From the NCBI GenBank assembly GCA_902525635.1, contig CABZHV010000001.1, positions 4,640 to 68,639 of the forward strand: 64,000 nucleotides of DNA. Direction: 5' to 3'. Position numbers and translations under genes: made by a program. Shown here piece after piece: positions 5,740 to 44,826 of this stretch. The stretch comes from an uncultured SAR86 cluster bacterium. Lineage in GTDB: Bacteria > Pseudomonadota > Gammaproteobacteria > Magnimaribacterales > D2472. Each line of letters begins with the position of its first letter. Within the stretch, counting starts at the first letter, position 1. Below the pieces are notes generated by a model. That model saw only the letters and a program-made list of their open reading frames with translations, was not told the origin of the DNA and made no database searches.

Positions 5740-5752
5740 TTATTTTATAGAA

Positions 5753-6160: not shown

Positions 6161-6171
6161 GTCTTAAATTT

Positions 6172-7182: not shown

Positions 7183-7185
7183 ATT

Positions 7186-7518: not shown

Positions 7519-7519
7519 T

Positions 7520-8356: not shown

Positions 8357-8435
8357 GTTAGTATTATCACATTAAATAATATATATGCCCATGACGTTTG
8401 CTTATTTATTATATTAACTTTAATATTTGCATCCT

Positions 8436-8512
8436 CGGGGTATAGCGCAGTCTGGTAGCGCACTCGCTTTGGGAGCGAGTGGTCGTAAGTTCGAATCTTA
8501 CTACCCCGACCA
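8436..8512 (+). tRNA. tRNA-Pro(TGG)
   Basis: Acceptor CGGGGTA/TACCCCG, anticodon arm CTCGC-TT TGG GA-GCGAG, CCA. Confidence 0.97.
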
Positions 8513-8513
8513 A

Positions 8514-8590
<77 letters not shown>

Positions 8591-8601
8591 TTTATTTTGA
8601 T

Positions 8602-9538: not shown

Positions 9539-9539
9539 T

Positions 9540-10181
9540 ATGAGTTATCCAATTCTTTACTCGTTTATTAGATGTCCATACGCCATGAGAGCAAGAATGG
9601 CATTAAAGCTCTGCGATATTAAATGTGAAATAAGAGAAGTAAGGTTAAATAACAAACCTGTTCAAATGATAAAACAATCACCTAAAGGTACAGTTCCAGT
9701 ATTAATACTGAAGAACAAAGTAATTGATGAAAGTAATGAAATAATTGACTGGGCATTAGGTAAAAATAATGTATTTGAAGGAAATCTAGACCAGCTGAAT
9801 ATAGATATTACAAATGATTTAATAAAGCTTTTTGACTCAAAATTTAAATACAATCTTGACAGATACAAGTATTCAAGCAGATATGAGAATGTTGATGTAA
9901 AGAAACATAAGATAGCTTGCTTAGAAATTTTAATTTATTTAGAGAGCTTGATGTCAGACAATAAATGGATTTTAGGTAGTAAGATAAATAAGCTAGATAT
10001 CTCAATTTTACCTTTTATCAGGCAATTCAGAATTGCAGATGCGGAATGGTTTGATAGTCAAAATAAAATTGAAAGAATAAAAAATATTACCCTTAATTTT
10101 CTAGATTCAGAGTTATTTAAAGATGTTATGAATAAGTATGACGTCTGGGAAGAAAATACTAAGCCTATATTTTTCCCTTGA
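9540..10181 (+). CDS. Glutathione S-transferase family protein
   Basis: LYSF.RCPYAMRARMAL, SPKGTVPVL, LDRYKY, PFIRQF. Confidence 0.9.
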   Translation: MSYPILYSFIRCPYAMRARMALKLCDIKCEIREVRLNNKPVQMIKQSPKGTVPVLILKNKVIDESNEIIDWALGKNNVFEGNLDQLNIDITNDLIKLFDSKFKYNLDRYKYSSRYENVDVKKHKIACLEILIYLESLMSDNKWILGSKINKLDISILPFIRQFRIADAEWFDSQNKIERIKNITLNFLDSELFKDVMNKYDVWEENTKPIFFP

Positions 10182-10234
10182 GATTATTTAGAAATAGATA
10201 ATAATTTTATTTAAACTATAATACCGAATCTTGT

Positions 10235-10312
10235 GGCGGGCGTAGCTCAGTTGGTTAGAGCGCTGGATTGTGGCTCCGGAGGCCGTGGGTTCGAACCCCA
10301 TCGCTCGCCCCA
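10235..10312 (+). tRNA. tRNA-His(GTG)
   Basis: G-1, acceptor GCGGGCG/CGCTCGC, C discriminator, anticodon arm CTGGA-TT GTG GC-TCCGG, CCA. Confidence 0.96.
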
Positions 10313-10331
10313 TTTACAAAGGATAATTAAA

Positions 10332-11628
10332 ATGAAAGTTGCTATTAAAAAATTAAAAGATTTAGAAAGAAAAATCACTGTGACTATTCCAGTTAAGGAC
10401 TACGAATCAAAATTTAATTCAAAACTAAAAAATATCAAGTCAAAAGCAAAAGTAGATGGTTTCAGAAAAGGAAATGTTCCAAATGAAGTTTTAGAGCAAA
10501 GATATGGATCATCAATTCATAACGAAGTGTTGAACGAATTGATACAAGAGTCATATCCAAAAGCCATATCTGAGAATAAAATTAGAGCTGCCTGTGCTCC
10601 AAAAGTTTCTATTGATTCAGAGGATTCCAAAAAAACCAATTGTTTATTCAGCAATTATTGAGATTTTTCCAGAGATTAAACCAAAATTCTCAAGATGGAC
10701 AAATTATGATAAATATCAAATTGAAATCGAAGATACGGATATAGATTCTGCAATAGATGATATCAAGAAAAGATATGGAGAGTGGAATGATGTTAAAAGA
10801 GAGGCAAAATTAGATGATCAAGTAATTATTGATTTTTTTGGAAAAATCAATGGTGAGGAGTTTGAAGGAAATGAAGCGAAAGATTTTAAATTAGTTTTAG
10901 GAAGCAATTCTATGATTCCAGGATTTGAAACTAGTATTGTAGGAAAAAAACTATCAAAATTTACTATTGAATGTTCATTTCCAGAAGATTACTTTAAAAA
11001 AGATCTTGCTGGAGTAAATGCAGAATTCGAAATAGATCTCAAACACATTCAAGAAATTAAAGAAGCAAATATAGATAAAGATTTGTTTACAAAGCTCCAA
11101 ATGGATATTAAAGAAGAGTCAGAATTCAGAGGTGAGATAATTGCAAGAATGAAAAATGAGGTAGCAGCTCAAGAAAGAGAACTGACAAAAGAATCAATGT
11201 ATGAAACTCTTTTAAAAACAAATAGTTTTCAATCACCAAAAGCTACAATAAATGAACAGGCTGACTTAATGAGAAAAGATGCCTTAATGAGAATTGGGCA
11301 TAGTGAGGAGAATGCAGGAGATGATCTCTTTCCGATTAATAGTTTTCTCGAAAAGGCTGAAAAAAGAGTTAAACTTGATTTACTATTTGCTGAATTAATT
11401 AATCATTTTGAAATAAAAGTTGAAAAGCAACAAGTTGATGATTTTATCGAAGAAGAGTCAAAAAGATATAAAGATCAAGAGCAATACAAAAAATGGATAG
11501 CTGGTCAACCTCAACAGCTGGAACAATTTAGAATGATAGTTTTAGAAAGACAACTGGTTGAAAATTTAGAAAATGTACTTAAATTTAAGAATAAGGTGAT
11601 AAAATTTTCAGAACTCGCAAATAGATAG
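10332..11628 (+). CDS. tig: Trigger factor; split by a +1 frameshift at or near A7 (10629-10635)
   Basis: ATG 10332 MKVAIKK...GFRKGNVP ribosome-binding motif; downstream ORF carries the FKBP domain (IDF.G.INGEEFEG...MIPGFE); immediately upstream of clpP. Confidence 0.9.
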
Positions 11629-29640: not shown

Positions 29641-31077
29641 ATGGCAGCATACAAAAAAAAGGGATTCTCAATAGGAATATTTATATTTCTGGTTATGCAG
29701 TTTATGTCTCCCCCTTCTGGTTTAAGTGAAGTTGGATGGGATGTTGCTTCTGTAGCAGTTCTAATGGCAATATGGTGGGCAACAGAAACAGTTCCAGTTG
29801 CAATCACTGCACTTCTTCCGCTTGCTCTTTTCCCTCTTCTGGATGTTACTTCCTTTGATAATGCTGCACTTCCATATGCTAATAAGAACATTTATTTGTT
29901 CTTAGGTGGCTTTATGCTTGCACTCGGTATTGAAAGTTCAGGATTACATAAAAGAATTGCTCTTAAAATGATTATTTCAGTTGGCTCAAGTGGAAGAAAG
30001 CTTGTTGGAGGCTTTATGCTGGTAGCAGCATTAATTAGTATGTGGGTAATGAATACCTCTACAACATTAATGTTACTTCCAATTGGATTAGCGGTCTGCA
30101 CTGTCATGTCAGAAACTATTCCTGGTTTATCAGAAAAAGATAAATCAAATTTTGACACAGCTCTGCTTCTTGGAATCGCATACGCTGCAACAATCGGCGG
30201 TATGTCAACATTGATCGGAACAGCTCCAAATATTGTTTTCAGTGCCTTTATGCAAGATACCTATGGTGTTGAAATCTCAATGTTTGATTGGATGATGTTA
30301 GGGGTACCTCTAGCCTCGATCATGCTTTTTGGTGCATGGACATTACTAACAAAATATGTATTTCCAATTACCTTTACTGCTTCAACTGAAGCAAGAGATG
30401 AGCTAAAAAAAATGCTTTTAAATATGGGAGAATTTTCTAAAGACGAAAAGAGAATTTCTATAATCTTTGGCTTGGCAGTTTTTGCATGGGTTTTCAGAAC
30501 ATTGTTGAATAAAATTGATTTTTTGTCTGGACTTACTGATGCAGGGATTGCAATTATTGCAGCAATTTTAATTTTTATGACGCCATCTGCATCTAAAAAA
30601 GGCGATTTATTAAAATGGGAGCGATCAAAAGACCTCCCATGGGGACTCTTAATTTTGTTTGGTGGTGGTTTGTCACTTGCTGCTCAAATAAGCTCAAGCG
30701 GTCTTGGAGTTTGGATTGGAAACAGTCTTTTAGTTTTGAGTTCAGTTCCACCAATATTACTAATCTTGGCAGTCGCAACTTTAATTATTTTCTTAACTGA
30801 AATCACAAGTAATGTAACTACCACGACAACCTTCTTACCTGTTTTTGGAGCTCTTGCAATTGCTATTGGTATACTACCCGTATCATTAACAGTTCCAGTT
30901 TGCCTTGCAGCAAGTTGTGCTTTCATGCTTCCGGTTGCGACTCCACCAAATGCTATTGTTTATGGTTCTAATAAGTTTACTATCGCAACAATGATGAGAG
31001 CTGGCTTTGCACTTAATATCATTGGCATACTAGTTGTTACAGTATTTGCTTATTATTTTGCTCCTTTAATTTTTTAA
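29641..31077 (+). CDS. DASS/SLC13 sodium:di/tricarboxylate (or sulfate) symporter
   Basis: SMWVMNTSTT, GTAPN, TEITSNVTT, AFMLPVATPPNAIV. Confidence 0.92.
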   Translation: MAAYKKKGFSIGIFIFLVMQFMSPPSGLSEVGWDVASVAVLMAIWWATETVPVAITALLPLALFPLLDVTSFDNAALPYANKNIYLFLGGFMLALGIESSGLHKRIALKMIISVGSSGRKLVGGFMLVAALISMWVMNTSTTLMLLPIGLAVCTVMSETIPGLSEKDKSNFDTALLLGIAYAATIGGMSTLIGTAPNIVFSAFMQDTYGVEISMFDWMMLGVPLASIMLFGAWTLLTKYVFPITFTASTEARDELKKMLLNMGEFSKDEKRISIIFGLAVFAWVFRTLLNKIDFLSGLTDAGIAIIAAILIFMTPSASKKGDLLKWERSKDLPWGLLILFGGGLSLAAQISSSGLGVWIGNSLLVLSSVPPILLILAVATLIIFLTEITSNVTTTTTFLPVFGALAIAIGILPVSLTVPVCLAASCAFMLPVATPPNAIVYGSNKFTIATMMRAGFALNIIGILVVTVFAYYFAPLIF

Positions 31078-31080
31078 GTT

Positions 31081-32793
31081 TTGAGAAATTTATTAATTAC
31101 ATTTTTATTTGTTTCTTCTTTAAATAGTACAGATTACATAGATTATTTACATCCTTTTCATCCTACCAAAAGTAAGGAAGGGATGGTGGTAAGTCAAAGC
31201 GCTCTTTCTTCAGATATTGGAGTAAAAATACTTGATATGGGAGGGAATGCAGTTGATGCTGCAGTTGCAGTAGGATTTTCTCTAGCAATTACTTTGCCTA
31301 GAGCAGGAAATCTAGGTGGCGGCGGCTTTATGTTGATTTATTTAAAAGAAAGAGATGAAATTTTTTATATAGATTACAGAAGCAAATCTCCAAGAAACTC
31401 ATCAATCGAGAAATTACTTGGAACAAAAAAAATTCCAGAAAGAAATTCTAAGTTATGGGAAAGAGTTGATTACACATATCTTGCATCTGCCGTACCTGGA
31501 ACAGTGTATGGACTTTTAGAAGCTCATAAAAATTTTGGATCATTAAATCTAGAACAAATTATGCAACCAGTTATTGAACAGGCAGAACAAGGTATTGTTG
31601 TTTCTAGTGATTTAAATTACGTGATTGAAGTAACACCACAAATTAGGGCAGATAAGGAATCTTTTTCTATATTTTTTAAAGATGGAAAAGCACTAAAAGA
31701 ATCTTCCGTCATGAAAAGACCTGACTTAGCTAACACATTTAAAGAAATATCAAAAAATGGAACTAAGGGCTTTTACGAAGGGGTAGTTGCAGAAAAAATT
31801 GTAAAAGCAATGAATGAAAATAATGGCTTAATTACAAGTGAAGATCTAAAAAACTATAAATCATTTTTTAGAATGCCGATTGCAATAAATTATAAAGGCT
31901 ATAAAGTTTTCACGGCTGCACCCCCATCAGGAGGCGGAATAACACTACTTACTGCTTTGAGCATTCTGAATAATATTGATATAAAAAAATATAAAAGTGA
32001 TTCTACAAAAACCTATCATTTTCTTGCTGAATCCTTGAGACGAGGTCATAACAATAGATCGCATTTCGTTGGAGATCCAGACTACTTTGATGTGCCAATT
32101 TCTGATCTTCTTTCAAAAAATAGAATTGCAGAGTTGTTCAAAACAATTGATTCTAATAAATCAAGTTCAGTAGACCAAATAAAAGCATTTAAGCCAAGAA
32201 TAGAGGGCAAGGACACAACGCATTTCTCTATTATTGATAAAGATGGCAATGCTGTATCAAATACTTATACATTAGGTTTATCATTTGGTTCTGGGGTAAC
32301 CATTCCAGATACAGGTATTTTAATGAATAGCCAGATGAATAATTTTGCATACAGATATGGTGAAAAAAATGTTCTAGGAAGAGTAGCAAGTCCTGGAAAT
32401 AGATTTGAACCAGGAAAAAAGCCAATGAGTACAATGTCTCCAACTATTATTTTTGATAAAGATGATGATCTTTTTTTGATTACAGGCTCACCAGGAGGAT
32501 CAGACATACCAGCTGCAATTTTAAGAGTTATTACTGGTGTTATTGACTTTGAGTTAGATATTGGAGAAGCGACAATGTTGCCAAGAATTCATAAGGATTG
32601 GCCATATACAGGTCTTGAACATGAAAGAGCTTTAAGTAGAGATACAATTAGAAGATTAAAAAGCATGGGTCATAAGACAGAATATGAAACGACCATTGGA
32701 AGTACACAAAGCATTCACGTTGTTGAAGGAATAAATAATGGCTTTGCAGATTTAAGAAGACCTAATGCTGGTGTAGCTGTTCAAACTAATTAA
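31081..32793 (+). CDS. ggt: Gamma-glutamyltransferase (TTG start)
   Basis: GGNAVDAAVA, GNLGGGGF, autoprocessing DTTHFS, P.STMSP, TGSPGG; signal peptide. Confidence 0.93.
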   Translation: MRNLLITFLFVSSLNSTDYIDYLHPFHPTKSKEGMVVSQSALSSDIGVKILDMGGNAVDAAVAVGFSLAITLPRAGNLGGGGFMLIYLKERDEIFYIDYRSKSPRNSSIEKLLGTKKIPERNSKLWERVDYTYLASAVPGTVYGLLEAHKNFGSLNLEQIMQPVIEQAEQGIVVSSDLNYVIEVTPQIRADKESFSIFFKDGKALKESSVMKRPDLANTFKEISKNGTKGFYEGVVAEKIVKAMNENNGLITSEDLKNYKSFFRMPIAINYKGYKVFTAAPPSGGGITLLTALSILNNIDIKKYKSDSTKTYHFLAESLRRGHNNRSHFVGDPDYFDVPISDLLSKNRIAELFKTIDSNKSSSVDQIKAFKPRIEGKDTTHFSIIDKDGNAVSNTYTLGLSFGSGVTIPDTGILMNSQMNNFAYRYGEKNVLGRVASPGNRFEPGKKPMSTMSPTIIFDKDDDLFLITGSPGGSDIPAAILRVITGVIDFELDIGEATMLPRIHKDWPYTGLEHERALSRDTIRRLKSMGHKTEYETTIGSTQSIHVVEGINNGFADLRRPNAGVAVQTN

Positions 32794-34231
32794 TTTTCCT
32801 GTAATTCAATGGCGGCTTTCTATCACCAAGCAAAGGTTTATATATAAAATCTTTACCAATTCTCTCTACATGCTCAGTCTTCGCTTCTTCAATTATTGAT
32901 GGATTCGAGATAATTTCAATTGCGCTTTTTGCTAAAACTATTGCAGCAAGTTCAGCTCCTTTTAAACCAATTGAAGTTCCTCCAGATGCAACTGCTTGCC
33001 AAGAGTGTGCTGACGTACCTGGAACCCATGTAGCTGTTCTCAATCCTGCTGTTGGGACATTCCAACTTACGTCACCCACATCAGTAGAGCCATAACTATG
33101 AGATGTTTTGAAAGGTCTAATGTTTTCTTGTGTGCCTAGCTTATTATCAGGTTGAAAAAATGTTTCATAAATTGTTTTTGCATAATCATTTTCTTTTTGA
33201 TTATATTTTATTCCTCCAGCCATGCTTAAATTTTTGTGAACAACTTTTTGAATAGCATCATTTTGTAATAATGAGAAATTACCGTGCATGACTTCATAGG
33301 ACATCTTTGTATCTGTTCCTATAGCAGCACCTTCAGCAGTATTAGTCACTCTTGAAAATAATTCTTCAACTACTGACATTTTTGGATGTCTAACATAATA
33401 GTAAACTTCAGCAATATCTGGAACAACATTTGGTGCTAAACCACCTTTTGTTATAACGTAATGTATTCTTGATTCTTGAGGAATGTGTTCTCGCATTAAA
33501 TTAACCATATGATTCATTGCCTCAACACCGTCTAATGCTGATCTTCCTTGCTCTGGAGATCCAGCAGCATGTGAAGCAATTCCTTTAAAAGTAAATTTGG
33601 CTGATTTGTTTGCATTTGATGTTCTTGAATTTGCGCTATTTACATCATCAGGATGCCAGTGAAGAACAATATCAACGTCATCAAATAAACCTTCTCTTAC
33701 CATATATACTTTTCCAGAACCTCCTTCCTCAGCAGGTGTTCCGTAAAACCTTATAGTTCCTTTAAAATTATTTTTGATCAACCATTCTTTTATTGCTACT
33801 GCCGCCCATGCAGACGCAGCTCCAAATAGATGATGTCCACAGGCATGACCAGCACCAGTAGCATTATCAGTAACTTCTTTAAATGGAGAATTAGTTTGTG
33901 CTAATCCAGGAAGGGCATCAAATTCTCCCAAAATGCCAATGACCGGCCCTCCGTTATTAAATTCAGCAACAAATGCAGTTGGAATACCTGCAACACCTTT
34001 TTTAATTTGAAAACCTTGATCTCGTAAGGATTTAGCAAGTGCATCTGAACTTTTGAGCTCTAAGTATCCAAGTTCAGCATAATTCCATATATCAATAGCA
34101 ATATTTTCAAATTTATTTTTATGATAATTAATACTTTTTATGACTGAATCACTTTCAAGAAAATCACTTATGAATATGGAGAGAATAAAACCCACACAAT
34201 GGTTTAACTTATATGTTTTAGATTTCTGCAT
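32786..34231 (-). CDS. M20 family amidohydrolase, AbgB-like
   Basis: EFDALPG, GHACGH, GTPAEEGG, WHP, GSTDVGDVSW. Confidence 0.88.
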   Translation of the reverse strand: MQKSKTYKLNHCVGFILSIFISDFLESDSVIKSINYHKNKFENIAIDIWNYAELGYLELKSSDALAKSLRDQGFQIKKGVAGIPTAFVAEFNNGGPVIGILGEFDALPGLAQTNSPFKEVTDNATGAGHACGHHLFGAASAWAAVAIKEWLIKNNFKGTIRFYGTPAEEGGSGKVYMVREGLFDDVDIVLHWHPDDVNSANSRTSNANKSAKFTFKGIASHAAGSPEQGRSALDGVEAMNHMVNLMREHIPQESRIHYVITKGGLAPNVVPDIAEVYYYVRHPKMSVVEELFSRVTNTAEGAAIGTDTKMSYEVMHGNFSLLQNDAIQKVVHKNLSMAGGIKYNQKENDYAKTIYETFFQPDNKLGTQENIRPFKTSHSYGSTDVGDVSWNVPTAGLRTATWVPGTSAHSWQAVASGGTSIGLKGAELAAIVLAKSAIEIISNPSIIEEAKTEHVERIGKDFIYKPLLGDRKPPLNYRKIN

Positions 34232-34841
34232 TACCCCAATAATTATAACCTACAATCTTTGGAGTGCTTGGCAGATACATTTGTTCAAGATCATTTATTT
34301 TAAAACCACTTTCTAACAAAATATTTGGAATATTTCTATTTATGTTGCATCCACCAAATAATTTTCCCCAAAGTGGATTTATTCTATTTTGCCACTTAAT
34401 AACTTTGTCGTCTGGAGCAACTCCATGTTCACAAAAAAGAATCTTACCATCTGATTTCATTACTCTTTTAATCTCCCTAAGAGCATCAAAAGGATTTGGT
34501 ATTGTGCAAAGAGTATATGTTAATAGAACAGTATCAATGGAATTAGATGCGAGCTTAATCTCTTCAGCACCATTCAATAAAAAATTGATATCTATCTCAT
34601 TTTTGATAGCAGCTTGTTTTGCCATCTCACAAAGTTCTGGAGAGGGATCTAAGCCATATATTTTTTCTACTTTAGACTTTTTGTAAAAGGGGATATTTAG
34701 TCCAGAACCAATTCCTATCTCCAAAATAGTTCCTTTTGCATGTGGAACGATTTTTTTTCTTTGATAATTGACAGGTTTTGTTGAACAACATTTATCTAAA
34801 AGCTTTGGGAGTATATATTTCTCATAAGCTTCTTTAATCAT
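34218..34841 (-). CDS. Class I SAM-dependent methyltransferase
   Basis: [10 protein letters not shown] motif I, YTLCTI, FCEHG, GGC; second Met taken as start. Confidence 0.85.
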
Positions 34842-35625
34842 GCTCAATTTCATTTAGAGGCATTGCAGCAATATTGAAACCAGCGTCAACATAGGTAATT
34901 TCGCCTGTTATTCCACTCGCATAATCAGAGCATAAAAAGGCAGCAGCATTCCCAACTTCTTCAGCAGTTACTGTTCTTCCTAAAGGAGCTCTTTTTGAAT
35001 GTTGACTCAGCATTTTTCTAAAATTTTTAACGCCCGAGGCTGCAAGTGTTTTTATCGGACCAGCTGAGATAGCATTGACTCTTATATTATTTTTTCCTAA
35101 GGACGCAGCTAGAAATCTTGTATTTGCCTCAAGAGAAGCTTTTGCAAGACCCATAACATTATAATTAGGCATAGTTTGAATGGATCCAAGATATGAAAGG
35201 GTTAGCAGTGCAGAGTTTTCATTAAGCATGGATTTTGATTCTTTAGCCATAGCAGTAAAGCTATACGAGCTTATGTCATGCGCTACTTTAAAACCTTCTC
35301 TAGTAGTAACATCAACAAAATCACCCTCGAGTTGATCAGAGGGGGCATAACCAATTGAATGAACAAAACCATCAAATGTACTCCAACATTGCTTAAGTTC
35401 TTTAAAAGACGATTTTATTGAGTCATCATCGCTTACATCACATTCAATTAATATTTTTGAACCACATGCCTCTGCAATTGGCTTAATATTTTTTAATAAT
35501 CTCTCATTTTGATAAGAAAAAGCCAATTCAGCTCCTTCTTTATGCATGGCATACGCTATTCCAGCTGCAATAGAGTATTTATTGGCAATCCCAGCTATCA
35601 AAAACTTCTTATTTTCTAGTAGCAT
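34834..35625 (-). CDS. fabI: Enoyl-ACP reductase FabI
   Basis: [33 protein letters not shown]. Confidence 0.97.
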
Positions 35626-35863
35626 TTAGTTATAGTTATATTTTTTATAACATTATTGTAAAAGAAAAAAGACACAAAGACTCATATTTCAGCTTATTAC
35701 TAAAAAAAACAAAAATTATTTAAATATATTAAGAACTTATGATTAATTATAAATTAATGTAAAAAATTGTAGCAATATTGTTAAAAACCTGAAACAATAC
35801 GATTATTACGTGTTTTAGCGGGGTGCTATGCGCAAAAATTTATATAACTTACAGGGGAATTGT

Positions 35864-38725
35864 ATGTTTAATTTTAAAAATTATTTGTTTGCAGTACTTG
35901 TGCTCACTTTTGGTATTTTTAATATCAATGTTGTTGCTCAAGATTCATCTGCAGATGAAGATGTCGAAGAGGTTGTAATAACCGGTACAAGACTTTCAGA
36001 TCCCAATTTATCTAGTGTCAGTGGTGTTGTAGCTGTTGATGCAGGTGATATTGCTGAAAGAGGTGTGGTTGCAGTTGAGGAGTTACTTGCTGATTTACCA
36101 CAGATATCACTTGGACAAAATATTACAGACTCAAATGGTGCTAATGGTTCTTCAACTATTAGTTTAAGAGGTATAGGTTCAAACAGAACTCTAACCCTAA
36201 TCAATGGAAAGAGAATGGCTCCAGGTACTATCAATGGTCAATCTGCAGCTAACATCAATAACATTCCAGTTTCATTAGTTAGTGAAGTTCAAGTTGTTAC
36301 TGGTGGTGCTTCATCAGTATATGGTTCTGACGCTATTGGTGGTGTTGTTAACTTTATCCTTGATGATGGTTTCCAAGGCTTTAAAGCTAGTTATACACAT
36401 AGTTACTATAACCATAAAAATGAGGACTCTGATATGAGAGCCCTTGTTGAAGCTGCTGGATATCCTCAAGCACCTGATACTGTCAATGTTGGAGACAACA
36501 AAGTTTGGGCTATTATGTTTGGTGCAACTCTTGGTGATAACGGTAACGTTACAGCATATCTTCAAAACAGAGAAAGAGATGCAATTCTTCAAAGTAAGTA
36601 TGACGTATCTGCTTGTGCTCTTTGGGATGGTGGGCCTCAAGCTGCAAATCCTTATGGTTGTGGTGGTTCAGGTACTGTTCCATGGGGTAGATTTGCTAGC
36701 TTTGGTGGCGGGCCAATCACTGATTGGAACTACTCTGTAGCTCCAGGTACTAATGAGTTCGAAGATTATCCAGGACCATTTAACTATGGACCATTTAATT
36801 ATTTCCAAAGACCAACAGAAACACTTTCTGGTGGTTTCTTTGCTGATTACGAAATTGCTGACAACATGAGCTTTTATGCAAGTGCTCAATTTATGGATGA
36901 TAGAACTGTTTCACAGATTGCTCCTTCTGGTGCTTTCTTTGTAACAAGCTCCATTCCTTGTGCTAACCCTTTAATGTCAGCACAACAGTTTAAGTTAATT
37001 TGTACAGACCAAGGTCTTACAGCTGCTGATTCAACACCATCTTACATAGGTAGAAGAAACCTTGAAGGTGGGGGTAGACAACAAGACATCAGACATAACT
37101 CTTACAGATATGTAATGGGTGTTGAAGGTGAGCTATCAAGTGGTTGGACATACGATGTTAGTTATTCTAACTCTGAAACAGCTGTTGCAAGTACATACAT
37201 GAACGATCTATCTATTACTAGAATCAAGAGAGCTCTTGATGTTGTTGCTGATGCAGACGGAAACCCAGTTTGTCAGTCAGTGGTAGATGGTTCAGATCCA
37301 CTTTGTCTTCCATGGAACGTTTTTGTTAACAACGGTAACCAAATTGTTGATAACGAGGCTGATGGTGTGACACAAGGTGTTCTTGATTATCTTATAGTTG
37401 ATCTATACGCAAGAGGAGAAGTTTACGAAGAAATTTGGCAAGCTGTTTTATCTGGTGAGATCGATGCTTTAAACGGTGCTAACGTTGTAGTTGGTGTTGA
37501 AAAAAGAACAACAGGAATGGATAACAGACCTGATAACGGCTTCTTAACAGGCGATGGTGCTGGTCAAGGTGGACCAACAAAAGCACTTGGTGGTGAGTAT
37601 TCCGTTGATGAAGTATTTTTTGAAATGGGTATTCCAGTAAGTGATCAACTTTCAGTTGATTTAGGAGCTAGAATTTCAGACTACTCAACAGGACAAGATA
37701 CTGATACTTGGAAAGTTGGGGCAAAATATGTTGTTAACGATAAAGTTACTGTTAGAGGAACAACACAGTATGCTGTAAGACACGGAAACGTGTTTGAGTT
37801 ATACGGTGACCAGTTCTTAGGTTTATGGTCAGGTAGCGATCCTTGTGCAGGATCTTCACCTTCAGCTTCGGCTGCTGAGTGTGCTCTTACAGGAGTAACT
37901 TCTGCTCAATATGGATCAGTTCCTGATTCACCAGCAGGACAATATAATGCTATCTATGGTGGTAACCCTAACGTTAATCCTGAAGAGTCTGATACTATCT
38001 CATTTGGTGTTGTTATGGAGTTAACAGACAATCTGACTGTTTCAGTAGATTATTCAGATATCACTATTGAAGGCGCTATTGGAAGTGTGTCTCCTGCATT
38101 TAGCATGGACAACTGTATTTCTACAGGATCACCATTACTTTGTGCAAATATTAACAGAAATTCTGTTAACGGAAACATATGGATTGGTTCTGGTGCAGAT
38201 GCTCCAAACGTAGTTTCTACTACATTGAACCTTGGTGAACTATCTACAAGTGGTTACGACATTGTTGCAGACTACTCAATGGATACAGCAATGGGTCCAT
38301 TAAGCATTAAATCTAATATTGCTATCACAGATACTTTCGATATTACTGAAGTTGTAGGTTTTGGAACTGCAGAATGTGCCGGTTATTGGGATGGTGGTGG
38401 AACCTGTGGTGGTCCAACATTTGAACTTCAAACTGTAACATCTGCTACATTATCTTTAGATCAAGGTGACTTAGTGGTAACACATAGATATCTAGATGAA
38501 ATCACTGACTTAGGTCCGTTTGATTCACCTATTGATGCGCAAAACTATTTTGATGCTGCTTTTAGCACATCATTTGGTGATGTTACTGTTTATGTTGGTG
38601 TGAATAACGTTTTTGATGCTGAAGCTCCTGTATTGGATGATTTAGCACCAAATGGTAATACATTCCCATCAATATATGATGCATTTGGTAGATATATATT
38701 TACTAATCTTACTTATCAGTTTTAA
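35864..38725 (+). CDS. TonB-dependent receptor
   Basis: AGGGGA RBS before ATG 35864, signal peptide, EEVVITG TonB box, GGASSVYGSDAIGGVVNF, C-terminal YQF. Confidence 0.95.
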   Translation: MFNFKNYLFAVLVLTFGIFNINVVAQDSSADEDVEEVVITGTRLSDPNLSSVSGVVAVDAGDIAERGVVAVEELLADLPQISLGQNITDSNGANGSSTISLRGIGSNRTLTLINGKRMAPGTINGQSAANINNIPVSLVSEVQVVTGGASSVYGSDAIGGVVNFILDDGFQGFKASYTHSYYNHKNEDSDMRALVEAAGYPQAPDTVNVGDNKVWAIMFGATLGDNGNVTAYLQNRERDAILQSKYDVSACALWDGGPQAANPYGCGGSGTVPWGRFASFGGGPITDWNYSVAPGTNEFEDYPGPFNYGPFNYFQRPTETLSGGFFADYEIADNMSFYASAQFMDDRTVSQIAPSGAFFVTSSIPCANPLMSAQQFKLICTDQGLTAADSTPSYIGRRNLEGGGRQQDIRHNSYRYVMGVEGELSSGWTYDVSYSNSETAVASTYMNDLSITRIKRALDVVADADGNPVCQSVVDGSDPLCLPWNVFVNNGNQIVDNEADGVTQGVLDYLIVDLYARGEVYEEIWQAVLSGEIDALNGANVVVGVEKRTTGMDNRPDNGFLTGDGAGQGGPTKALGGEYSVDEVFFEMGIPVSDQLSVDLGARISDYSTGQDTDTWKVGAKYVVNDKVTVRGTTQYAVRHGNVFELYGDQFLGLWSGSDPCAGSSPSASAAECALTGVTSAQYGSVPDSPAGQYNAIYGGNPNVNPEESDTISFGVVMELTDNLTVSVDYSDITIEGAIGSVSPAFSMDNCISTGSPLLCANINRNSVNGNIWIGSGADAPNVVSTTLNLGELSTSGYDIVADYSMDTAMGPLSIKSNIAITDTFDITEVVGFGTAECAGYWDGGGTCGGPTFELQTVTSATLSLDQGDLVVTHRYLDEITDLGPFDSPIDAQNYFDAAFSTSFGDVTVYVGVNNVFDAEAPVLDDLAPNGNTFPSIYDAFGRYIFTNLTYQF

Positions 38726-38741
38726 TAACTATTTGTAAATT

Positions 38742-38770
38742 AAAAAGAGGGCTTTTGGCCCTCTTTTTTT
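38742..38770 (+). terminator. Rho-independent terminator
   Basis: AAAAAGAGGGC-TTTTG-GCCCTCTTTTTTT. Confidence 0.9.
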
Positions 38771-38934
38771 ATATAAAATAAACTTTGATACAATAATAAA
38801 TATGAATTTCTTAAAAAAAATTAAGATTAAAGCTCTGCATTTTCTATTTGCGAATTTTACAAAACTATTTATTTTTTTTATGAATTTATATGTAAAATCA
38901 CAGGTAAAATAACCCTAAATTAGCCCAGAAATTT

Positions 38935-40497
38935 ATGTATCGATTTCTTTATTTATTATTACTCTCTTTCTCATTTGACGTACTAGTTCATCCTGTTTCA
39001 TCTATTAAGAAATTCTCTGATGAAAATGCACATCTTCCATCACCTTTACCTGATAGAGTGATATTAACTTGGAATGATGACCCTTCAACTACTCAAGCTG
39101 TTAATTGGAGAACAGATATTTCTGTGAGATCTGGGCTTGCACAAATAGCAATAGCGAATGCAAATGGAAGAGCACTTATGCCTGAGGAATATAAAGCAGA
39201 GACAACTTATTTCAAAAGTGACATTAATGAGGCTCATTACCATAGTATTACATTTAAAAATCTTCAACCTAGTACCTTATATGCATATCGTGTTGGTGAT
39301 GGAGTAAACTGGACAGAATATTACCACTTTAAAACAGCAAGCGACAAAGAAGAACCTTTTAGCTTTATATACTTTGGTGATGCTCAAAATGAAGTTAGAA
39401 CTCATTGGTCAAGAGTTTTTAGGGAAGCATTTCGTGATGCTCCTAGAGCAGCATTTACACTTCATGCAGGTGATTTAATTGATGAACATAATAAAGACTC
39501 ACAATGGGGAGAATGGCATCAAGGACCTGACTGGGTAAACGGAACAATACCGGTGATTGCTACCCCAGGAAATCATGAGTACCAAATAGACTCTGAGACC
39601 AAAAGAATATGGACAAACAAAGAAGGTATAAGTGTAAATATTGAAATCGAATCTTTTAATGATGATAATCCCAAGATTTTTATTATTGATATCAAAGATT
39701 CCAATGGAATAACAGGAACAATACAGACAAATGATTCTGGAGAAATTATTAGTACCGATAAAGGCATTGAGTTAATTACAGGGTATAAAGAAGAAGAGTT
39801 AGTAAATAATTATATTTTAGGTGGCAAAGCACCATTATATGACCGTCTACAAAATTCTAGTAGTATCCAAAAGGTTAGCAATCACTGGCGGCCACAATTC
39901 TCATTTCCAATTCAAGAAGTTCCAGACGAAAGGCTTAAGGAAACACTTTATTATTTAGATTATCAAGGCGTAAGATTTATTTCACTTGATTCAAATATTG
40001 AAATGGAAATTCAAGTAGATTGGCTCAGAAAAGTTCTGGAGGAAAATGAAAATCGTTGGACGATTGTTACCTTTCATCATCCCCTTTATTCACCTGCGTC
40101 AGATCGTGATAACTTTGAAATGCGTCAATTGTGGAAACCTATACTTGATGAATTTAAAGTTGATTTGGTTTTAAGTGGACATGATCATAGTTATTCCCGA
40201 ACTGGATTAATAGATACTGAAAATATTAAAAATATTCCAACAGGCTATCAGCAAGCTTATGATCCAAAAATTGGAACAGTGTATGTTGTCTCAGTCAGTG
40301 GACCAAAAATGTATGAGATTACTAAAGGCCCATATGCAAAAAAACTAGGTGAGAATACTCAGCTCTATCAAATTATAGATGTTAATAACGATATTCTTAA
40401 GTTCCGAGCTTTTACAGCAACTGGTGTCTTATATGATAAATTTATTCTTCAAAAACGCAAAGGTAAGCCGAATATATTAATTGAAACTAATTTATAA
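38935..40497 (+). CDS. Purple-acid-phosphatase-like metallophosphoesterase with N-terminal FN3-type domain
   Basis: Signal peptide; Y.YRVG FN3-like motif; FGDAQ, AGDL, GNHE, FHHP, GHDH motifs. Confidence 0.88.
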   Translation: MYRFLYLLLLSFSFDVLVHPVSSIKKFSDENAHLPSPLPDRVILTWNDDPSTTQAVNWRTDISVRSGLAQIAIANANGRALMPEEYKAETTYFKSDINEAHYHSITFKNLQPSTLYAYRVGDGVNWTEYYHFKTASDKEEPFSFIYFGDAQNEVRTHWSRVFREAFRDAPRAAFTLHAGDLIDEHNKDSQWGEWHQGPDWVNGTIPVIATPGNHEYQIDSETKRIWTNKEGISVNIEIESFNDDNPKIFIIDIKDSNGITGTIQTNDSGEIISTDKGIELITGYKEEELVNNYILGGKAPLYDRLQNSSSIQKVSNHWRPQFSFPIQEVPDERLKETLYYLDYQGVRFISLDSNIEMEIQVDWLRKVLEENENRWTIVTFHHPLYSPASDRDNFEMRQLWKPILDEFKVDLVLSGHDHSYSRTGLIDTENIKNIPTGYQQAYDPKIGTVYVVSVSGPKMYEITKGPYAKKLGENTQLYQIIDVNNDILKFRAFTATGVLYDKFILQKRKGKPNILIETNL

Positions 40498-40594
40498 AAA
40501 GTAAACTAATTAGTAGCACTCGAAATTTTACGTAAATATAAGCATAATACAGAAATATAAAATACAGTTTTACTAAGGACTTTTTTGACTAAAT

Positions 40595-40636
40595 GAGGCT
40601 ATTACTTAGCCAGGAGAGTACTTGATTGGCATTCAA
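40595..40636 (+). pseudogene. Decayed 5' half of tRNA-Ala(GGC) (old attachment scar)
   Basis: GAGGCTATTACTTAGCCAGGAGAGTACTTGATTGGCATTCAA matches the first 42 nt of the reconstructed tRNA-Ala at 33/42 positions without gaps. Confidence 0.85.
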
Positions 40637-40685
40637 CTATAAATTTTATTTTCATACTTGTTTATCTATGTTAGCTTAATAATAT

Positions 40686-41696
40686 ATGACAAGATTTCTT
40701 TTATCACTAGCTGAATCAGGATTTATTCCTGATGTCTTAATAAAAATTGCTGCAAGGTATATCTCTAATAAGCGCCTGAATGAGCAGAGCGTTGATGATA
40801 ATAAGGATAAAATTATCACTGTTCTTTCAAGAGGTGCTGTTGCTGAAAAAACATATGATGCTAATGAACAACACTACGAAGTCCCACCTGAATTTTTTAA
40901 GTATGTTTTAGGAACAAACCTTAAATATTCTTGTTCACTATTTAATGATGTAGATTCTCTCAATGATGCAGAGGAATCAATGCTCAAGCTTTATATGGAT
41001 AGAGCTGATATTAAGGACGGTCATGAAGTTCTTGACCTAGGTTGTGGATGGGGTAGTTTTTCTTTATATGTAGCTGAAAGATACCCAAATATAAATATTA
41101 CGTCAGTAAGTAATTCGAGCGATCAAATTGCTTACATTAAAAATGAAGCACATAAAAAAGATCTGTTAAATATCAAGGCTTTTAGAATGGATGTTAATAA
41201 TCTTGAATTAAATAAACAATTTGATCGCATTGTTTCAATTGAAATGTTTGAACATCTAAGAAACTATAAGTTAATTTTAAATTCTCTTAATCATGCACTT
41301 AAACCTGATGGAAAATTATTCATTCATATTTTTTGTCATAAAAAACTAACATATCTTTATGAAATGAAAAATAATCTTGACTGGATGACAAAATATTTTT
41401 TTCAAGGCGGAATTATGCCTAGTAAAGATATCTTTCAGTACTTTGAGGGTGAGTTAGAAATAATCAATCAATGGGATATAAATGGAAATCATTATTCAAA
41501 AACTTGTAAAGCTTGGTTAAACAATCATTATAAAAATAAGAAAAAAATATTAGACATTTTTGAGAAACACTATGATGAACCTAAAATTTGGTTTAATAGA
41601 TGGAGAATTTTTTTTTTATCGTGTGAGGCTTTTTTTGCATTAAATAATGGTAAAGAATATTTTGTTGGACACTATCTATTTAAAAAATCTAATTAA
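40686..41696 (+). CDS. Cfa/CMAS-family SAM-dependent methyltransferase
   Basis: ANEQHYEVP, KYSCS, LDLGCGWGS, SIEMFEH, FIHIFCH. Confidence 0.88.
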   Translation: MTRFLLSLAESGFIPDVLIKIAARYISNKRLNEQSVDDNKDKIITVLSRGAVAEKTYDANEQHYEVPPEFFKYVLGTNLKYSCSLFNDVDSLNDAEESMLKLYMDRADIKDGHEVLDLGCGWGSFSLYVAERYPNINITSVSNSSDQIAYIKNEAHKKDLLNIKAFRMDVNNLELNKQFDRIVSIEMFEHLRNYKLILNSLNHALKPDGKLFIHIFCHKKLTYLYEMKNNLDWMTKYFFQGGIMPSKDIFQYFEGELEIINQWDINGNHYSKTCKAWLNNHYKNKKKILDIFEKHYDEPKIWFNRWRIFFLSCEAFFALNNGKEYFVGHYLFKKSN

Positions 41697-41780
41697 TAAC
41701 CTACAACTAAAAAAGCAAAATATTATAGATTACTGCCCACTGCATCTTCTGAATTCATAATGTACAATGTCGTTTCTGAA

Positions 41781-41821
41781 GGGGCTATAGCTCAGCTGGG
41801 AGAGCGCTTGAATGGCATTCA
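41781..41821 (+). pseudogene. Intact 5' half of tRNA-Ala(GGC), ending just past the anticodon loop (attL)
   Basis: GGGGCTATAGCTCAGCTGGGAGAGCGCTTGAATGGCATTCA, followed immediately by the stop codon of a minus-strand gene. Confidence 0.93.
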
Positions 41822-42073
41822 TTAATCTAGTGCTTCGTATTCAGGAATAACTTTCATTACATAAACAGCATTTTTAAATTCTTTATGACATGCTGATATT
41901 GTTTCTTTAACACAATGCATAGCATGATTATATTCACCTTGAACTACTGTGCTAGTAGGAAAGGTAGCAACCTTAATATCATCATAGGTATTAATCTTTT
42001 CTATGAATCCTTTAATAGGTGGAATAAAGTTCTCTTTGTTAGGGTACATGCTTATATCTATTGTTACTTGCAT
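41822..42073 (-). CDS. YkoF/thiamine-binding-like small protein
   Basis: 83 aa; ISMYP and STVVQG motifs of the thiamine-binding (DUF77)/YkoF ferredoxin-like fold. Confidence 0.65.
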   Translation of the reverse strand: MQVTIDISMYPNKENFIPPIKGFIEKINTYDDIKVATFPTSTVVQGEYNHAMHCVKETISACHKEFKNAVYVMKVIPEYEALD

Positions 42074-42076
42074 AAT

Positions 42077-42643
42077 CTAAATTTTACACTCCTCAATATT
42101 CTTTTCATTATTTACTCTTGGACTATTAACCATTCGATCTACTGGATAAAACTCTACACGCCTAGATAAACTAGAAGCAAATCTATCTTTACCATTTAGA
42201 TAATCTCTAGCTTCATTATGTTTTAATATAATAGGTTGCCTATGATGTATTGGCGCAAGTTTCTCATTAGCTTCCATAGTTAAAATTGCACAACCTGAAT
42301 CGTTATGAATACCTGCAAAATAAAATACATCATTATTAATGTGGAAGTAATAAGGTTGTTTTACTTCTCCATCTCTTTTCCATTCGTACCAACCATCTGC
42401 AAGAATAAGGCAAGGTTTAGATTCTTTGAATGATGGTTTCTGTCTAACTGTTTCTGATCTTGCATTAATTAGATTCATAGGCTCTTTTGCCCAAGAAGGG
42501 GAGTAAGACCATTTCATAAACTTAGGCTTGTCTGTAATCGTTAGAATGTCTTGAGAAGGTGCAACATTGTAATTCTCTTTAATGCTTACACCAGTAAGCT
42601 CTTTGACATCTATAGTCCTTCTTAAAGTAAATCTTCCACACAT
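42077..42643 (-). CDS. SOS response-associated peptidase (SRAP; YedK/HMCES family)
   Basis: N-terminal MCGRF, YNVAPSQ, INARSET, DGWYEW, IHHRQP. Confidence 0.93.
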   Translation of the reverse strand: MCGRFTLRRTIDVKELTGVSIKENYNVAPSQDILTITDKPKFMKWSYSPSWAKEPMNLINARSETVRQKPSFKESKPCLILADGWYEWKRDGEVKQPYYFHINNDVFYFAGIHNDSGCAILTMEANEKLAPIHHRQPIILKHNEARDYLNGKDRFASSLSRRVEFYPVDRMVNSPRVNNEKNIEECKI

Positions 42644-42702
42644 TTAATAATCTTATAACATAATTATTTTTCGTGCCTTGATAGGTTTGGTAAGATGGGA
42701 AT

Positions 42703-43806
42703 ATGAAAAGACTCCTATCTTTGCTAATTGTTTTTATATTTATCCATGGTTGTTCAGAGCCTGTTACTCCTCCTGAAAAAATTGCTAATGATTTCTATCT
42801 CAACCTCTTAACAGGAAACTTTGATTCAGCATTTCTGATGTTTTCTGATGAATCTAAAGAAGCAGTTACAATATTCGATTTTAAAGAGTATTACACTATT
42901 AATATTGGACGCGATTATGAATTCGCCATCAAAGAATTGGAAGAAAATCCAATTGGTGTCCTCTCAATAGGCTATCCAGCTATTGAAATTATAAATATTT
43001 CAATTTCAGGAAAAACTGCCTCGGTAGACTTATCCGCACAAATTAACGACATTCAAGCTATTGCTTCAAAATTAATGACTAAAATATTAGAAAAATATAC
43101 AGCTAATATTTCTACACAAAAAGAGCTTTCTTCATATGCTGAAGAGATGATTGCTGATGAAATAAACAAAACTGATAATGATGCTCTTCCAAAAATAAAT
43201 CTTAAGGTTTTAAGAATTGATTTAGTTCTTGAAAAAGAAGGTTGGAAGATTAGTGAAAATCTTGCCCAAAATATCCTTCTTGAAAAACAGAAACAGGATC
43301 TAATAAAAGAACAACAAGAGGCTGAGCTTAAAGAACTAAACGAAAAAATAGAAAAACAGAAATTAGAAAATGAACGTATTAAACAAGAAAAGAAGCGCAA
43401 AGATGAAGAGGAGCTAAAAAGAAAGCAAGAGTTAGAAAAAGAAAAACTACAATACATGGAGAATAAAGTTTCAATTTTTGATTTTGAAGCAACAAGAATT
43501 GATACTTATTCAGACAAGAACATACCTGCAGTAAGATTTGCTATTAAAAATATTGGAAATAAATCATTAAATATAGTGAAAGTTACTGTAGTCTTTTATG
43601 ATCGGGATGATTTACCAATATATGAAAAATCATACTCTCCTGTATTAGTTTCAAAATATTCAATCTCTGGAGATACTCCTTTAAAACCAAATTATATTAA
43701 GAGGGAAAAAGAAGGTAGATATTACACAATAGAAGAATTAGGACCTGAGTGGTCTGGCAAGGCTACCATCTCTGTCAGTGAGATTGAGTTTACAGATGAT
43801 GATTAA
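42703..43806 (+). CDS. Hypothetical lipoprotein with central coiled coil
   Basis: Lipobox IHGC; K/E/Q-rich helical stretch; beta-rich C-terminal domain. Confidence 0.75.
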   Translation: MKRLLSLLIVFIFIHGCSEPVTPPEKIANDFYLNLLTGNFDSAFLMFSDESKEAVTIFDFKEYYTINIGRDYEFAIKELEENPIGVLSIGYPAIEIINISISGKTASVDLSAQINDIQAIASKLMTKILEKYTANISTQKELSSYAEEMIADEINKTDNDALPKINLKVLRIDLVLEKEGWKISENLAQNILLEKQKQDLIKEQQEAELKELNEKIEKQKLENERIKQEKKRKDEEELKRKQELEKEKLQYMENKVSIFDFEATRIDTYSDKNIPAVRFAIKNIGNKSLNIVKVTVVFYDRDDLPIYEKSYSPVLVSKYSISGDTPLKPNYIKREKEGRYYTIEELGPEWSGKATISVSEIEFTDDD

Positions 43807-43822: not shown

Positions 43823-43898
43823 GGGGCTATAGCTCAGCTGGGAGAGCGTCAGCGTGGCACGTTGAAGGTCGTCGGTTCGATCCCGACTAGCTCCACCA
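43823..43898 (+). tRNA. tRNA-Ala(GGC), variant copy carried inside the insert
   Basis: 76 nt; acceptor GGGGCTA/TAGCTCC with G3:U70; anticodon arm TCAGC-GT GGC AC-GTTGA; T arm GTCGG-TTCGATC-CCGAC; CCA. Confidence 0.93.
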
Positions 43899-43932
43899 AT
43901 TTAAATAATTTTAGAGTTTTCTATATAAATAT

Positions 43933-43950
43933 GTGACCATATGGTGACCA
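43933..43950. repeat. Tandem GTGACCA repeat with 11-bp period; candidate integrase arm-type site
   Basis: GTGACCA-TATG-GTGACCA, about 105 bp from the right core repeat. Confidence 0.45.
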
Positions 43951-44029
43951 AGAGTCAAAACAACTTTATTTGTAAGAAATGATTTATACTTGAAGCGTGG
44001 CTTTGACTAGGTTTGCGCCTTTTAAGTTT

Positions 44030-44098
44030 TATAACTCGTAGGAGAGCATCCTCATGGCATTCAAGAGGTCCGCGGTTCGATCCCGCGTAGCTCCACCA
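44030..44098 (+). pseudogene. Intact 3' half of tRNA-Ala(GGC) preceded by a decayed, non-complementary 5' portion (attR)
   Basis: TATAACTCGTAGGAGAGCATCCTC-ATGGCATTCAAGAGGTCCGCGGTTCGATCCCGCGTAGCTCCACCA; acceptor and anticodon stems cannot pair. Confidence 0.9.
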
Positions 44099-44208: not shown

Positions 44209-44826
44209 CTACTCTCTGATTCCAGACTCTGAAGGAAGCATAGATTCATTCTGAATTGCATTTTCATAAACAGCCACAAAAATCATCAAATAAAAAGGTA
44301 GTGCAAATAGCGATAAAATATTTACTATCGGAATTACAGAGATTATTTGAATGCCTATGGTAAGTAATGCATACACACCGAATACCTTCCAAAAACCCAT
44401 TGAATGTACCTGCTCTCTGGATTGTCCTAATGACTCTGTTGGTAACATATCTTTATCTACTAAAAAAAACCATGCTAAAAGCCATACTGTTGCAAGATAG
44501 ATTCCTGGAATAAATAACAATAAAAGCCCTAAAAATACTCCAAAAAATGAGATGAACATCAGAAGCAAGGTTTTCCACCACATTCCATTTTGAAAACCAT
44601 ACAGCCAGGAGTCCATAATTCCCTCGCTTTCTCCTCTAGCAGCCCTCAACATGAATTTATAAAAACCCCCCAAAAGAGCCGGAATAAATAAAAGTCCGAT
44701 AATCGTAATTGCCGCTACTACACATAATATACATGTAATGATGAACCTAAAAAAAATTAACCAATAATTTTTTTTGGCCATCTCAATTCCAATTTTAAAA
44801 TAATCTTCTATTTTTAAATCTTTCAT
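44209..44826 (-). CDS. Hypothetical integral membrane protein
   Basis: Several TM segments; LFIPGIYLA..W...FLVD.....ESL..S pattern (DUF975-like). Confidence 0.7.
   Translation of the reverse strand: MKDLKIEDYFKIGIEMAKKNYWLIFFRFIITCILCVVAAITIIGLLFIPALLGGFYKFMLRAARGESEGIMDSWLYGFQNGMWWKTLLLMFISFFGVFLGLLLLFIPGIYLATVWLLAWFFLVDKDMLPTESLGQSREQVHSMGFWKVFGVYALLTIGIQIISVIPIVNILSLFALPFYLMIFVAVYENAIQNESMLPSESGIRE

Follow-up and report, generated by a model that had tools for sequence, protein, structure and literature searches.

Introduction

Genetic elements that integrate into tRNA genes classically carry the 3′ half of the target tRNA in their attP site and regenerate the gene upon integration. Integration that does not rebuild the tRNA has been demonstrated experimentally in actinobacteriophages under the name of tRNA-dependent lysogeny (Fionnbharth, Cluster L and others; Guerrero-Bustamante & Hatfull, mBio 2024, PMC10865867), for which the accessible text of the report gives a common core of ∼10 bp and a phage-borne tRNA of the same isotype. 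The same report speculates that a plasmid-borne tRNA could act as a second attB, and its accessible part contains no discussion of a phage tRNA that lacks the core. A related body of work concerns the tycheposons and tRNA-proximal additive islands of Prochlorococcus, in which small cargo elements and their remnants accumulate beside specific tRNA genes, tRNA-Ala(GGC) included (Hackl et al., bioRxiv 10.1101/2020.12.28.424599). According to the available portion of that preprint, what defines a tycheposon is a tyrosine or serine recombinase of its own together with restoration of the tRNA, and no substitute full-length tRNA is mentioned there.

We have analysed a 64,000-nt stretch of the genome of an uncultured SAR86 cluster bacterium (hereafter the window), in which a resident tRNA-Ala(GGC) gene, H, is split in two and a complete tRNA-Ala(GGC) gene, S, lies between its parts. 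By comparison with the described systems, tRNA-dependent lysogeny is the closest, and non-restoring integration at a short core, accompanied by a substitute tRNA, is the best fit to the locus. As in those phages, the attachment site is in a host tRNA gene (the insert sits between H positions 41 and 32, with a 10-bp overlap), the core is short, no functional tRNA is rebuilt at either junction, the element carries a tRNA, here a tRNA-Ala(GGC) inside the insert, and, to the extent that the accessible description allows the comparison, arm-type repeats occur near the core. Unlike those phages, the insert has neither phage genes nor a tyrosine integrase, measures 2.2 kb and holds three cargo genes; its host is a small-genome marine gammaproteobacterium in which the need for S is putative; and in other genomes the substitute also serves as the only chromosomal copy. 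Splitting a tRNA gene while bringing a spare one is already known from some phages; here it is found in a tiny element without a recombinase gene.

As far as the available part of the preprint describes them, the Prochlorococcus islands share with this locus a flank of full and partial tRNA, with a partial copy at the far end, and they share nutrient-related cargo (PhoX and PhoD in relatives of the window) and many islands without a recombinase; unlike tycheposons, the window insert has neither a recombinase of its own nor a restored tRNA. Classical tRNA islands and prophages (P4-like and lambda-like tyrosine integrases) resemble it in a crossover within a 7-base anticodon loop flanked by the inverted repeat of the stem, in a displaced 3′ half that starts at position 32, and in conserved arms with direct repeats. 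Islands of relatives regenerate the tRNA as the classical elements do; the window insert and a metagenomic locus described below (L082) do not.

Results

A complete tRNA-Ala(GGC) gene without the host core

ARAGORN located six tRNA genes in the window, among them S at positions 43823-43898 of the forward strand, which Rfam also recovered. S scored 60.5 bits against the Rfam tRNA model RF00005 (gathering score 29) and the rejoined H 62.4 bits. The first 26 bases of S are repeated exactly at 41781-41806, a match that occurred in none of 100 shuffles. Over the 76 positions the two genes differ at 15 (27, 28, 29, 31, 32, 38-43, 49, 50, 64 and 65) and are identical at 1-26 and 66-76, so that acceptor stem, D arm, anticodon, U33, A37 and variable loop are shared, while 11 of the 12 other anticodon-arm positions and two T-stem pairs are changed. 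Every change preserves base pairing: the 21 cloverleaf pairs are all intact in both genes, including G3:U70 (the third pair, G-T), and the anticodon stem of S contains one G-U pair. Positions 32 and 38 are G and C in S versus A and T in H, and S has the GGC anticodon, U33 and A37 expected of a bacterial tRNA-Ala(GGC).

These results bear out the first-pass annotation in its description of the gene, namely that positions 1-26 and the 3′ end of the acceptor are those of the split host tRNA, that the anticodon arm reads TCAGC-GTGGCAC-GTTGA in place of CTTGA-ATGGCAT-TCAAG, that the T stem has compensatory changes (at 49, 50, 64 and 65, with pairs kept) and that the host integration core is gone (five of its ten bases are changed). 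All structural features of a tRNA-Ala(GGC) are retained, G3:U70 and a Watson-Crick-capable 32-38 pair among them, as had also been proposed. Changes unique to S are those in stem positions 27-29, paired with 41-43, together with position 40 and the 50-64 pair. The concentration of the differences between S and H in the anticodon arm was highly significant when all stems were taken as free to vary (P = 1.9e-6) versus P = 0.015 when only anticodon and T arms were; the anticodon and T stems are the variable parts of tRNA-Ala across the phylum. Under the second model the clustering is modest and only mildly unusual, and we place no weight on it.

The insertion into the resident gene

The 5′ part of H occupies 41781-41821 (forward strand), equals positions 1-41 of the intact gene in all nine relatives fetched, and acts as attL; it reads ...CTTGA-ATGGCAT-TCA, and its last 10 bp are the repeat ATGGCATTCA (41812-41821). 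The 3′ part, acting as attR, lies at 44054-44098 on the same strand, comprises positions 32-76 and matches the corresponding part of the intact gene of genome G014 at 100% identity; it reads ATGGCATTCAAG...CCACCA and opens with the same repeat (44054-44063). Joined over their 10-base overlap, the two pieces give a 76-nt tRNA that is intact and identical in nine of nine fetched relatives. At the left junction the 5′ piece continues as TTAATCTAG..., and at the right one ...GCATCCTC comes before the 3′ piece; no tRNA was called at either junction by ARAGORN or Rfam.

Contig C16 of G014 aligns with window positions 30574-41821 (11,248 bp) at 97.9% identity; the alignment stops precisely at 41821, after which G014 continues with the remainder of an intact H equal to window 44054-44098. 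The segment 41822-44053 (2,232 bp) is therefore an insertion that splits H after the anticodon loop and is flanked on each side by the 10-bp direct repeat. To judge from this alignment, the insertion is precise and recent. An empty syntenic locus, with methyltransferase, tRNA and flavin monooxygenase (FMO) genes, is present in G016. The proposal that the H halves are the resident gene and that S arrived with the insert agrees with this colinearity and with the intact H found in 31 of the 40 other genomes of the genus. In the assembly of the window, a 24-contig MAG estimated as 78% complete, S is the one intact Ala(GGC) gene, and a tRNA-Ala(TGC) gene is also present. The dead 5′ half of H still has the upstream region native to the tRNA gene, and any transcription that persists there would run antisense into the first two genes of the insert.

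Contents of the insert

The insert contains three ORFs. The first, ORF83 (83 aa, 41822-42073, reverse strand), has a stop codon that abuts the junction and a weak match to Thiamine_BP (PF01910; 25.9 bits against a cut-off of 24.9). It is followed at 42077-42643, on the reverse strand, by a 188-aa SOS-response-associated peptidase (SRAP, PF02586; 151 bits), which a protein search found in two of 41 genomes of the genus, the window's own (G000) and G044. The third ORF (367 aa, 42703-43806, forward strand) has, by reading of its sequence, a coiled-coil middle and a lipoprotein-like N-terminus, matches no Pfam family and ends 16 bases ahead of S; among 139 genomes of the family only the window's own carries it, and it has 30 metagenomic relatives. 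Pfam assigned no recombinase, phage gene, or nuclease-like or immunity-like gene among the three.

Homologues of ORF83 were found in G044, accompanied by the SRAP gene (93.5% DNA identity), and in G046, downstream of S (81% amino acid identity).

Downstream of S lie a GTGACCA-N4-GTGACCA direct repeat (43933-43951), a putative arm-type recombinase binding site that recurs in related islands, and at 43952-44053 the conserved right arm of an island family, which was defined from an alignment of seven right ends and is 75-83% identical to its relatives. Within this arm are GTGGCTTTGACTAGGTTT, at 43997-44014, and a degenerate D-arm-like GAGAGCA. The GTGACCA repeat is present once in the window, 34 nt after S, and thus on one side of the core, unlike in L082.

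Assembly support and transcription

Of 24 sequencing runs, all represented by Logan contigs, four were compared with the window (X1, X2, X3 and X15). Contigs of two other runs, X2 and X3, bridge 42619/42627 to 43831/43848. None of the contig pieces listed bridges 41821|41822 (there were 929 further pieces), so the left junction is without independent support from another run. Joints that restore H in short contigs are indistinguishable from the intact genes of other strains; those labelled ‘skips 2242’ are intact H genes of such strains.

No S-specific contig was found among the pieces listed for RNA runs. A 768-nt RNA-run contig that covers ORF83 and SRAP was set aside as a trace of this element, as, at 93% similarity, it resembles the copy in G044 instead. 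Scans for a promoter-like site just upstream of S and for a terminator returned none, and S would probably be transcribed by read-through from the lipoprotein gene, which is a guess.

A recombinase-less island family at the same tRNA

Five genomes of the genus carry, on one contig, an intact H and a second H 3′ half 0.7-5.5 kb downstream; the islands are L018 (G010), L019 (G008), L020 (G024), L021 (G001) and L022 (G023), each with the conserved arm and a 45-nt tRNA 3′ half at its end. G020 contributes a sixth right end, on its own contig. All these right ends begin at position 32 (ATGGCAT...), behind a conserved arm with GTGGCTTTGACTAGGTTT, and most also have GTGACCA-N4-GTGACCA; window positions 43899-44098 belong to this right-arm family. 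In G001, G010, G023, G024 and L082 the GTGACCA motif lies at both ends, ∼30 nt beyond the attL tRNA on its 3′ side and ∼100 nt ahead of the attR core on its 5′ side. Cargo includes PhoX, PhoD, a metallophosphatase and a GT2 glycosyltransferase in G008, G023 and G024, and a 1,015-aa Mrr-ResIII-helicase protein in G010.

No integrase was found among the cargo genes of these islands. A search confined to PF00589 gave no match in the window's assembly (78% complete), and across the 41 genomes of the genus it recovered only XerC/D-like pairs, in 38 of the 40 others, and two short extra copies. The two short copies (190-205 aa; 60-72 bits) lie ∼3 kb from tRNA-Leu(TAG), at L091 (G006, contig C3) and L092 (G046, contig C16). 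They were discarded as candidates for the island recombinase, as they sit in tRNA-Leu(TAG) islands without GTGACCA repeats; tRNA-Leu(TAG) is a separate island site in the genus.

Islands also occur at another allele of the gene, the G-type allele described below. At L107 (G149), L108 (G134) and L109 (G173) a second G-type 3′ half starts with GTGGCAC, at position 32, and different direct repeats are found in the arms (ATGTAGACAGA, twice, in G134 and GCCACGTA, twice, in G173), which suggests that several element lineages may use the same anticodon loop. It had been proposed that S is immune to integrases that target the host anticodon loop. Since G-type genes with the same GTGGCAC loop are island targets, the loop alone gives no general immunity. 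Cognate half-sites are duplicated in 5 of the 31 genomes with H, in 3 of the 28 with the G-type allele and at none of the 12 S loci, numbers too small for a test of whether S is never a target.

A phage origin of S likewise found no support in the collections searched. Neither a 25-mer of the S anticodon arm nor the 45-mer of the H 3′ half matched any viral contig in IMG/VR, and the 20 viral contigs matched by a degenerate 18-mer from the right arm resemble the window in nothing but the motif. Phage and plasmid collections returned generic tRNA-Ala matches, the best from a phage being the tRNA-Ala(TGC) of an Erwinia jumbo phage at 87.8%.

Alleles of tRNA-Ala(GGC) in the family and beyond

In a search of 139 genomes of the family, intact H, full-length and 100% identical, was found in 31 of the 40 other members of the genus, in 8 of 25 genomes of genus g17 and in the single genome of g16. 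By this distribution, H is the resident allele and the norm in the genus. The S anticodon-arm 25-mer (≤3 mismatches) was present in 4 of 266 genomes of the order (G000, G041, G046 and G178), in 8 metagenome contigs and in 1 of 185,579 species genomes, the Gammaproteobacteria bacterium TMED226 MAG (= G041). No H half was found in G041, G046 or G178, where S is the sole Ala(GGC) allele found. Sequences of S are identical at 11 of the 12 loci and differ by one change at the remaining one.

A third allele, the G-type (CTTGC-GTGGCAC-GCAAG), is carried by 28 further genomes of the family (g12, 2/7; g13, 16/32; g14, 5/9; g17, 5/25). S is 9 changes away from it and 15 from H, and shares with it the loop and the 49-65 pair. 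One fetched g10 genome has a C32-G38 form. Genus g17 is polymorphic for three whole alleles, H (8/25), G-type (5/25) and S (1/25). The 32-38 pair of tRNA-Ala(GGC) covaries among the genera of family f1, as A-U, G-C or C-G.

Published work, in its accessible parts, describes the A32-U38 pair as a mark of Ala(GGC) that tunes decoding (PMC5041475, PMC11231383). In our sample of 400 other genomes of the phylum, the A32/U38 frame was found in 243 and the G32/C38 frame in one, in keeping with the first-pass statement that A32-U38 is characteristic of bacterial Ala(GGC). The further idea that G32-C38 is a special rewrite holds as to its rarity in the phylum and breaks down within the family, where it is the ordinary G-type loop of four sister genera; with 28 sister-genus genomes carrying it, G32-C38 is ruled out as an innovation of S.

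S at other loci

Halves of H surround S at two of the 12 S loci, the window and L082, a metagenome contig of 3,036 bp. L082 starts with a beta-lactamase-fold (MBL) hydrolase gene, followed by H positions 1-38, which end with ATGGCAT, by 43 nt and by a complete S; beyond S come the repeat AGTGACCATATAGTGACCAA, one long cargo ORF (∼1.9 kb of cargo), the repeat GTGACCATATGGTGACCA, GTGGTTTTGACTAGGTTT and the H 3′ half. H is broken at position 41 in the window versus 38 in L082, and the left ends of the elements also differ (TCATTAATC in the window versus GCTTATAGC in L082). As both break positions and element-side sequences differ, the two are separate events, and L082 is, on this comparison, a second, independent case of a split H accompanied by S. 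Both breaks fall at the 3′ edge of the anticodon loop, as expected of a crossover inside the 7-base loop. Ahead of S in L082 are 27 nt similar to the promoter-like stretch found before both H and S genes at native loci.

The island-type GTGACCA repeat follows S at +34/+45 in four of the 12 loci (window, G046, L082 and L083), and none of the 12 has a duplicated S-type half-site, although H and G-type genes do show such duplicates. In G046 the order is S, GTGACCA repeat, ∼190 nt and the ORF83 homologue, which corresponds to the window insert read as a circle. S stands behind the native upstream stretch in G041, L079, L081 and L083; L084 matches G041 at the same positions, and in L080 S directly follows a methyltransferase gene with 84% DNA identity to that of the window. 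At some of these native loci, for example in G041/TMED226 and L080, there is no trace of an element, so that S could be a chromosomal allele merely picked up by elements. The opposite view to that of the first-pass annotation, in which S is the ordinary chromosomal gene and the halves are foreign, is in this respect half true: S is the sole allele at the native locus in three other genomes and several metagenome contigs, but H is resident in the genus of the window. As a whole, the earlier interpretation was partly supported. A substitute tRNA without the host core stands; a special G32-C38, immunity and a phage origin found no support.

Discussion

The explanation that we favour, with somewhat better than even confidence, is that a small element without a recombinase gene entered H by site-specific recombination and brought the substitute S. 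The segment 41822-44053 would be an integrated cargo element that recombined within the 7-base anticodon loop of the resident tRNA-Ala(GGC), through an attachment site that shares ∼10 bp (ATGGCATTCA) with the tRNA instead of the usual 45-nt 3′ half. With so little shared, the host gene would be left as two dead pieces, and the complete tRNA supplied by the element, if expressed and charged, would take over decoding. Because S is without the host-type core, it could lie on the same DNA as the att sites and yet not serve as a target of a recombinase specific for the H site. The conserved right arm and the GTGACCA repeats suggest that the element belongs to the recombinase-less island family of the genus, which would have to be moved by something acting in trans. 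In its favour are the precise insertion relative to G014, the resident status of H, the island family, the second case in L082, the sound structure of S and its place as the one intact Ala(GGC) gene of the assembly, the lack of duplicated S-type half-sites at all 12 S loci, the circle-like order in G046 and the precedent of tRNA-dependent lysogeny. Several findings weigh against this explanation. The insert has no recombinase gene, and PF00589 finds none in the assembly; left ends and break positions differ between the window and L082; S also stands at native loci with no trace of an element; no promoter-like site adjoins S upstream; and 41821|41822 is unbridged among the contig pieces listed. 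The cargo is not specific to the element, as ORF83 and SRAP also adjoin tRNA-Ser(TGA) in G044, and, with GTGACCA on one side of the core only, the window element may be a rearranged derivative and not an integrable unit.

The same layout might have arisen without S ever being an element's tRNA. S could be an alternative chromosomal allele that circulates by homologous recombination, and the window the scar of several rearrangements at an island hot spot, in which a canonical island came first and its left part was then replaced from an S-type donor, the changed arm being neutral divergence unrelated to att sites. We regard this as rather unlikely. It accommodates the coexistence of H, G-type, S and C32-G38 (g10) alleles in the family, with three in g17 alone, the closeness of S to the G-type allele (9 changes, same loop and 49-65 pair), the presence of S at the native locus in G041, L079, L081, L083 and L080, the phylum-wide variability of the anticodon and T stems of tRNA-Ala, by which 11 changes in 12 anticodon-arm positions become only mildly unusual (P = 0.015), and the 26-nt identical 5′ end of H and S, a possible recombination substrate. 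However, replacement in several steps is not expected to yield a clean 10-bp repeat at the anticodon loop relative to G014, and two independent outcomes of this kind, with breaks at 41 (window) and 38 (L082), are not expected of it either; at four of 12 loci S is accompanied by the GTGACCA flank of the islands; and no donor lineage in which S is the norm is known, the 25-mer having been found beyond its own genome in TMED226 alone among 185,579 species genomes. L082 and the left junction also bear on whether the layout is a metagenome assembly chimera, with contigs of different strains joined through shared tRNA sequence. The assembly is a 24-contig MAG of 78% completeness, tRNA-Ala is common to many community members, Logan contigs break there, and 41821|41822 is unbridged among the contig pieces listed. 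But the left junction follows the H-specific bases 27-41, outside the 26-nt stretch common with S, and has no repeat longer than 10 bp, while a layout of this kind recurs in an independent assembly (L082) and the contigs of X2 and X3 span 42619/42627 to 43831/43848; we consider a chimera very improbable. Least credible of all is that the changed arm guards against a sequence-specific anticodon nuclease of the phage-defence or colicin-like kind and not against integrases. The usual determinants of anticodon nucleases are the anticodon, U33 and A37, and these are unchanged in S; moreover, the same loop is the norm in sister genera and the insert has nothing like a nuclease or immunity gene, which leaves the clustering of changes in the anticodon arm as the sole point in its favour.

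Returning to site-specific entry with a substitute tRNA, any selective value of the changed arm would be a separate matter. It is plausible from the core changes that S is immune to integration, but that the loss of the core was itself selected is a proposal that we would sooner doubt than accept. More speculative still, and in our view improbable, is that S is an integration-resistant tRNA allele that spreads on islands that destroy the sensitive one. Under such a drive-like scheme, an S-bearing element would first split H (the state of the window and L082); the H stump and S, whose first 26 nt are identical, would then recombine there, with loss of the stump and of any cargo in between; S would be left at the native site behind the native promoter, with island flank still present in L083 and G046 and none in L080 and G041; and the locus would thereafter be closed to H-specific elements. 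Recombination at the 26-nt ends would convert the layout of the window into that of L080; the direction of these events is our inference.

If the favoured explanation is true, the phage strategy of breaking a tRNA gene and bringing a spare also operates in tiny recombinase-less islands of abundant, genome-streamlined ocean bacteria, and such islands deliver niche genes, for example phosphatases and restriction enzymes. The loci would form a natural series (host allele intact, host allele split and accompanied by its substitute, substitute as sole allele), from which one could see how mobile elements can come to replace a gene central to translation, and they offer a testable case of whether changes in the anticodon stem can close an integration hot spot. 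If S is in addition resistant to integration, the series would amount to a drive-like turnover of a core tRNA gene and to a host-element arms race fought in the anticodon stem.

Additional observations

In G044 (L030, contig C39), the ORF83-SRAP pair occupies reverse-strand positions 9915-10736, where it is 93.5% identical to window 41822-42664. It sits at a contig end, ∼550 bp from tRNA-Ser(TGA), and the similarity begins exactly at the ORF83 stop codon; by its distribution the pair behaves like a movable two-gene cassette.

Beyond the right end of the insert, a 205-aa membrane-protein ORF (44209-44826, reverse strand) lies between the tRNA 3′ half and the genes for a conserved 92-aa ORF and FMO. 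It matches no Pfam family and had no tblastn match in 22 fetched loci (relatives and two metagenome contigs), and it may be older island cargo. Elsewhere in the window, five tRNA genes (Val, Asp, Pro, Arg and His) are grouped within 4.8 kb, at 5540-10312.
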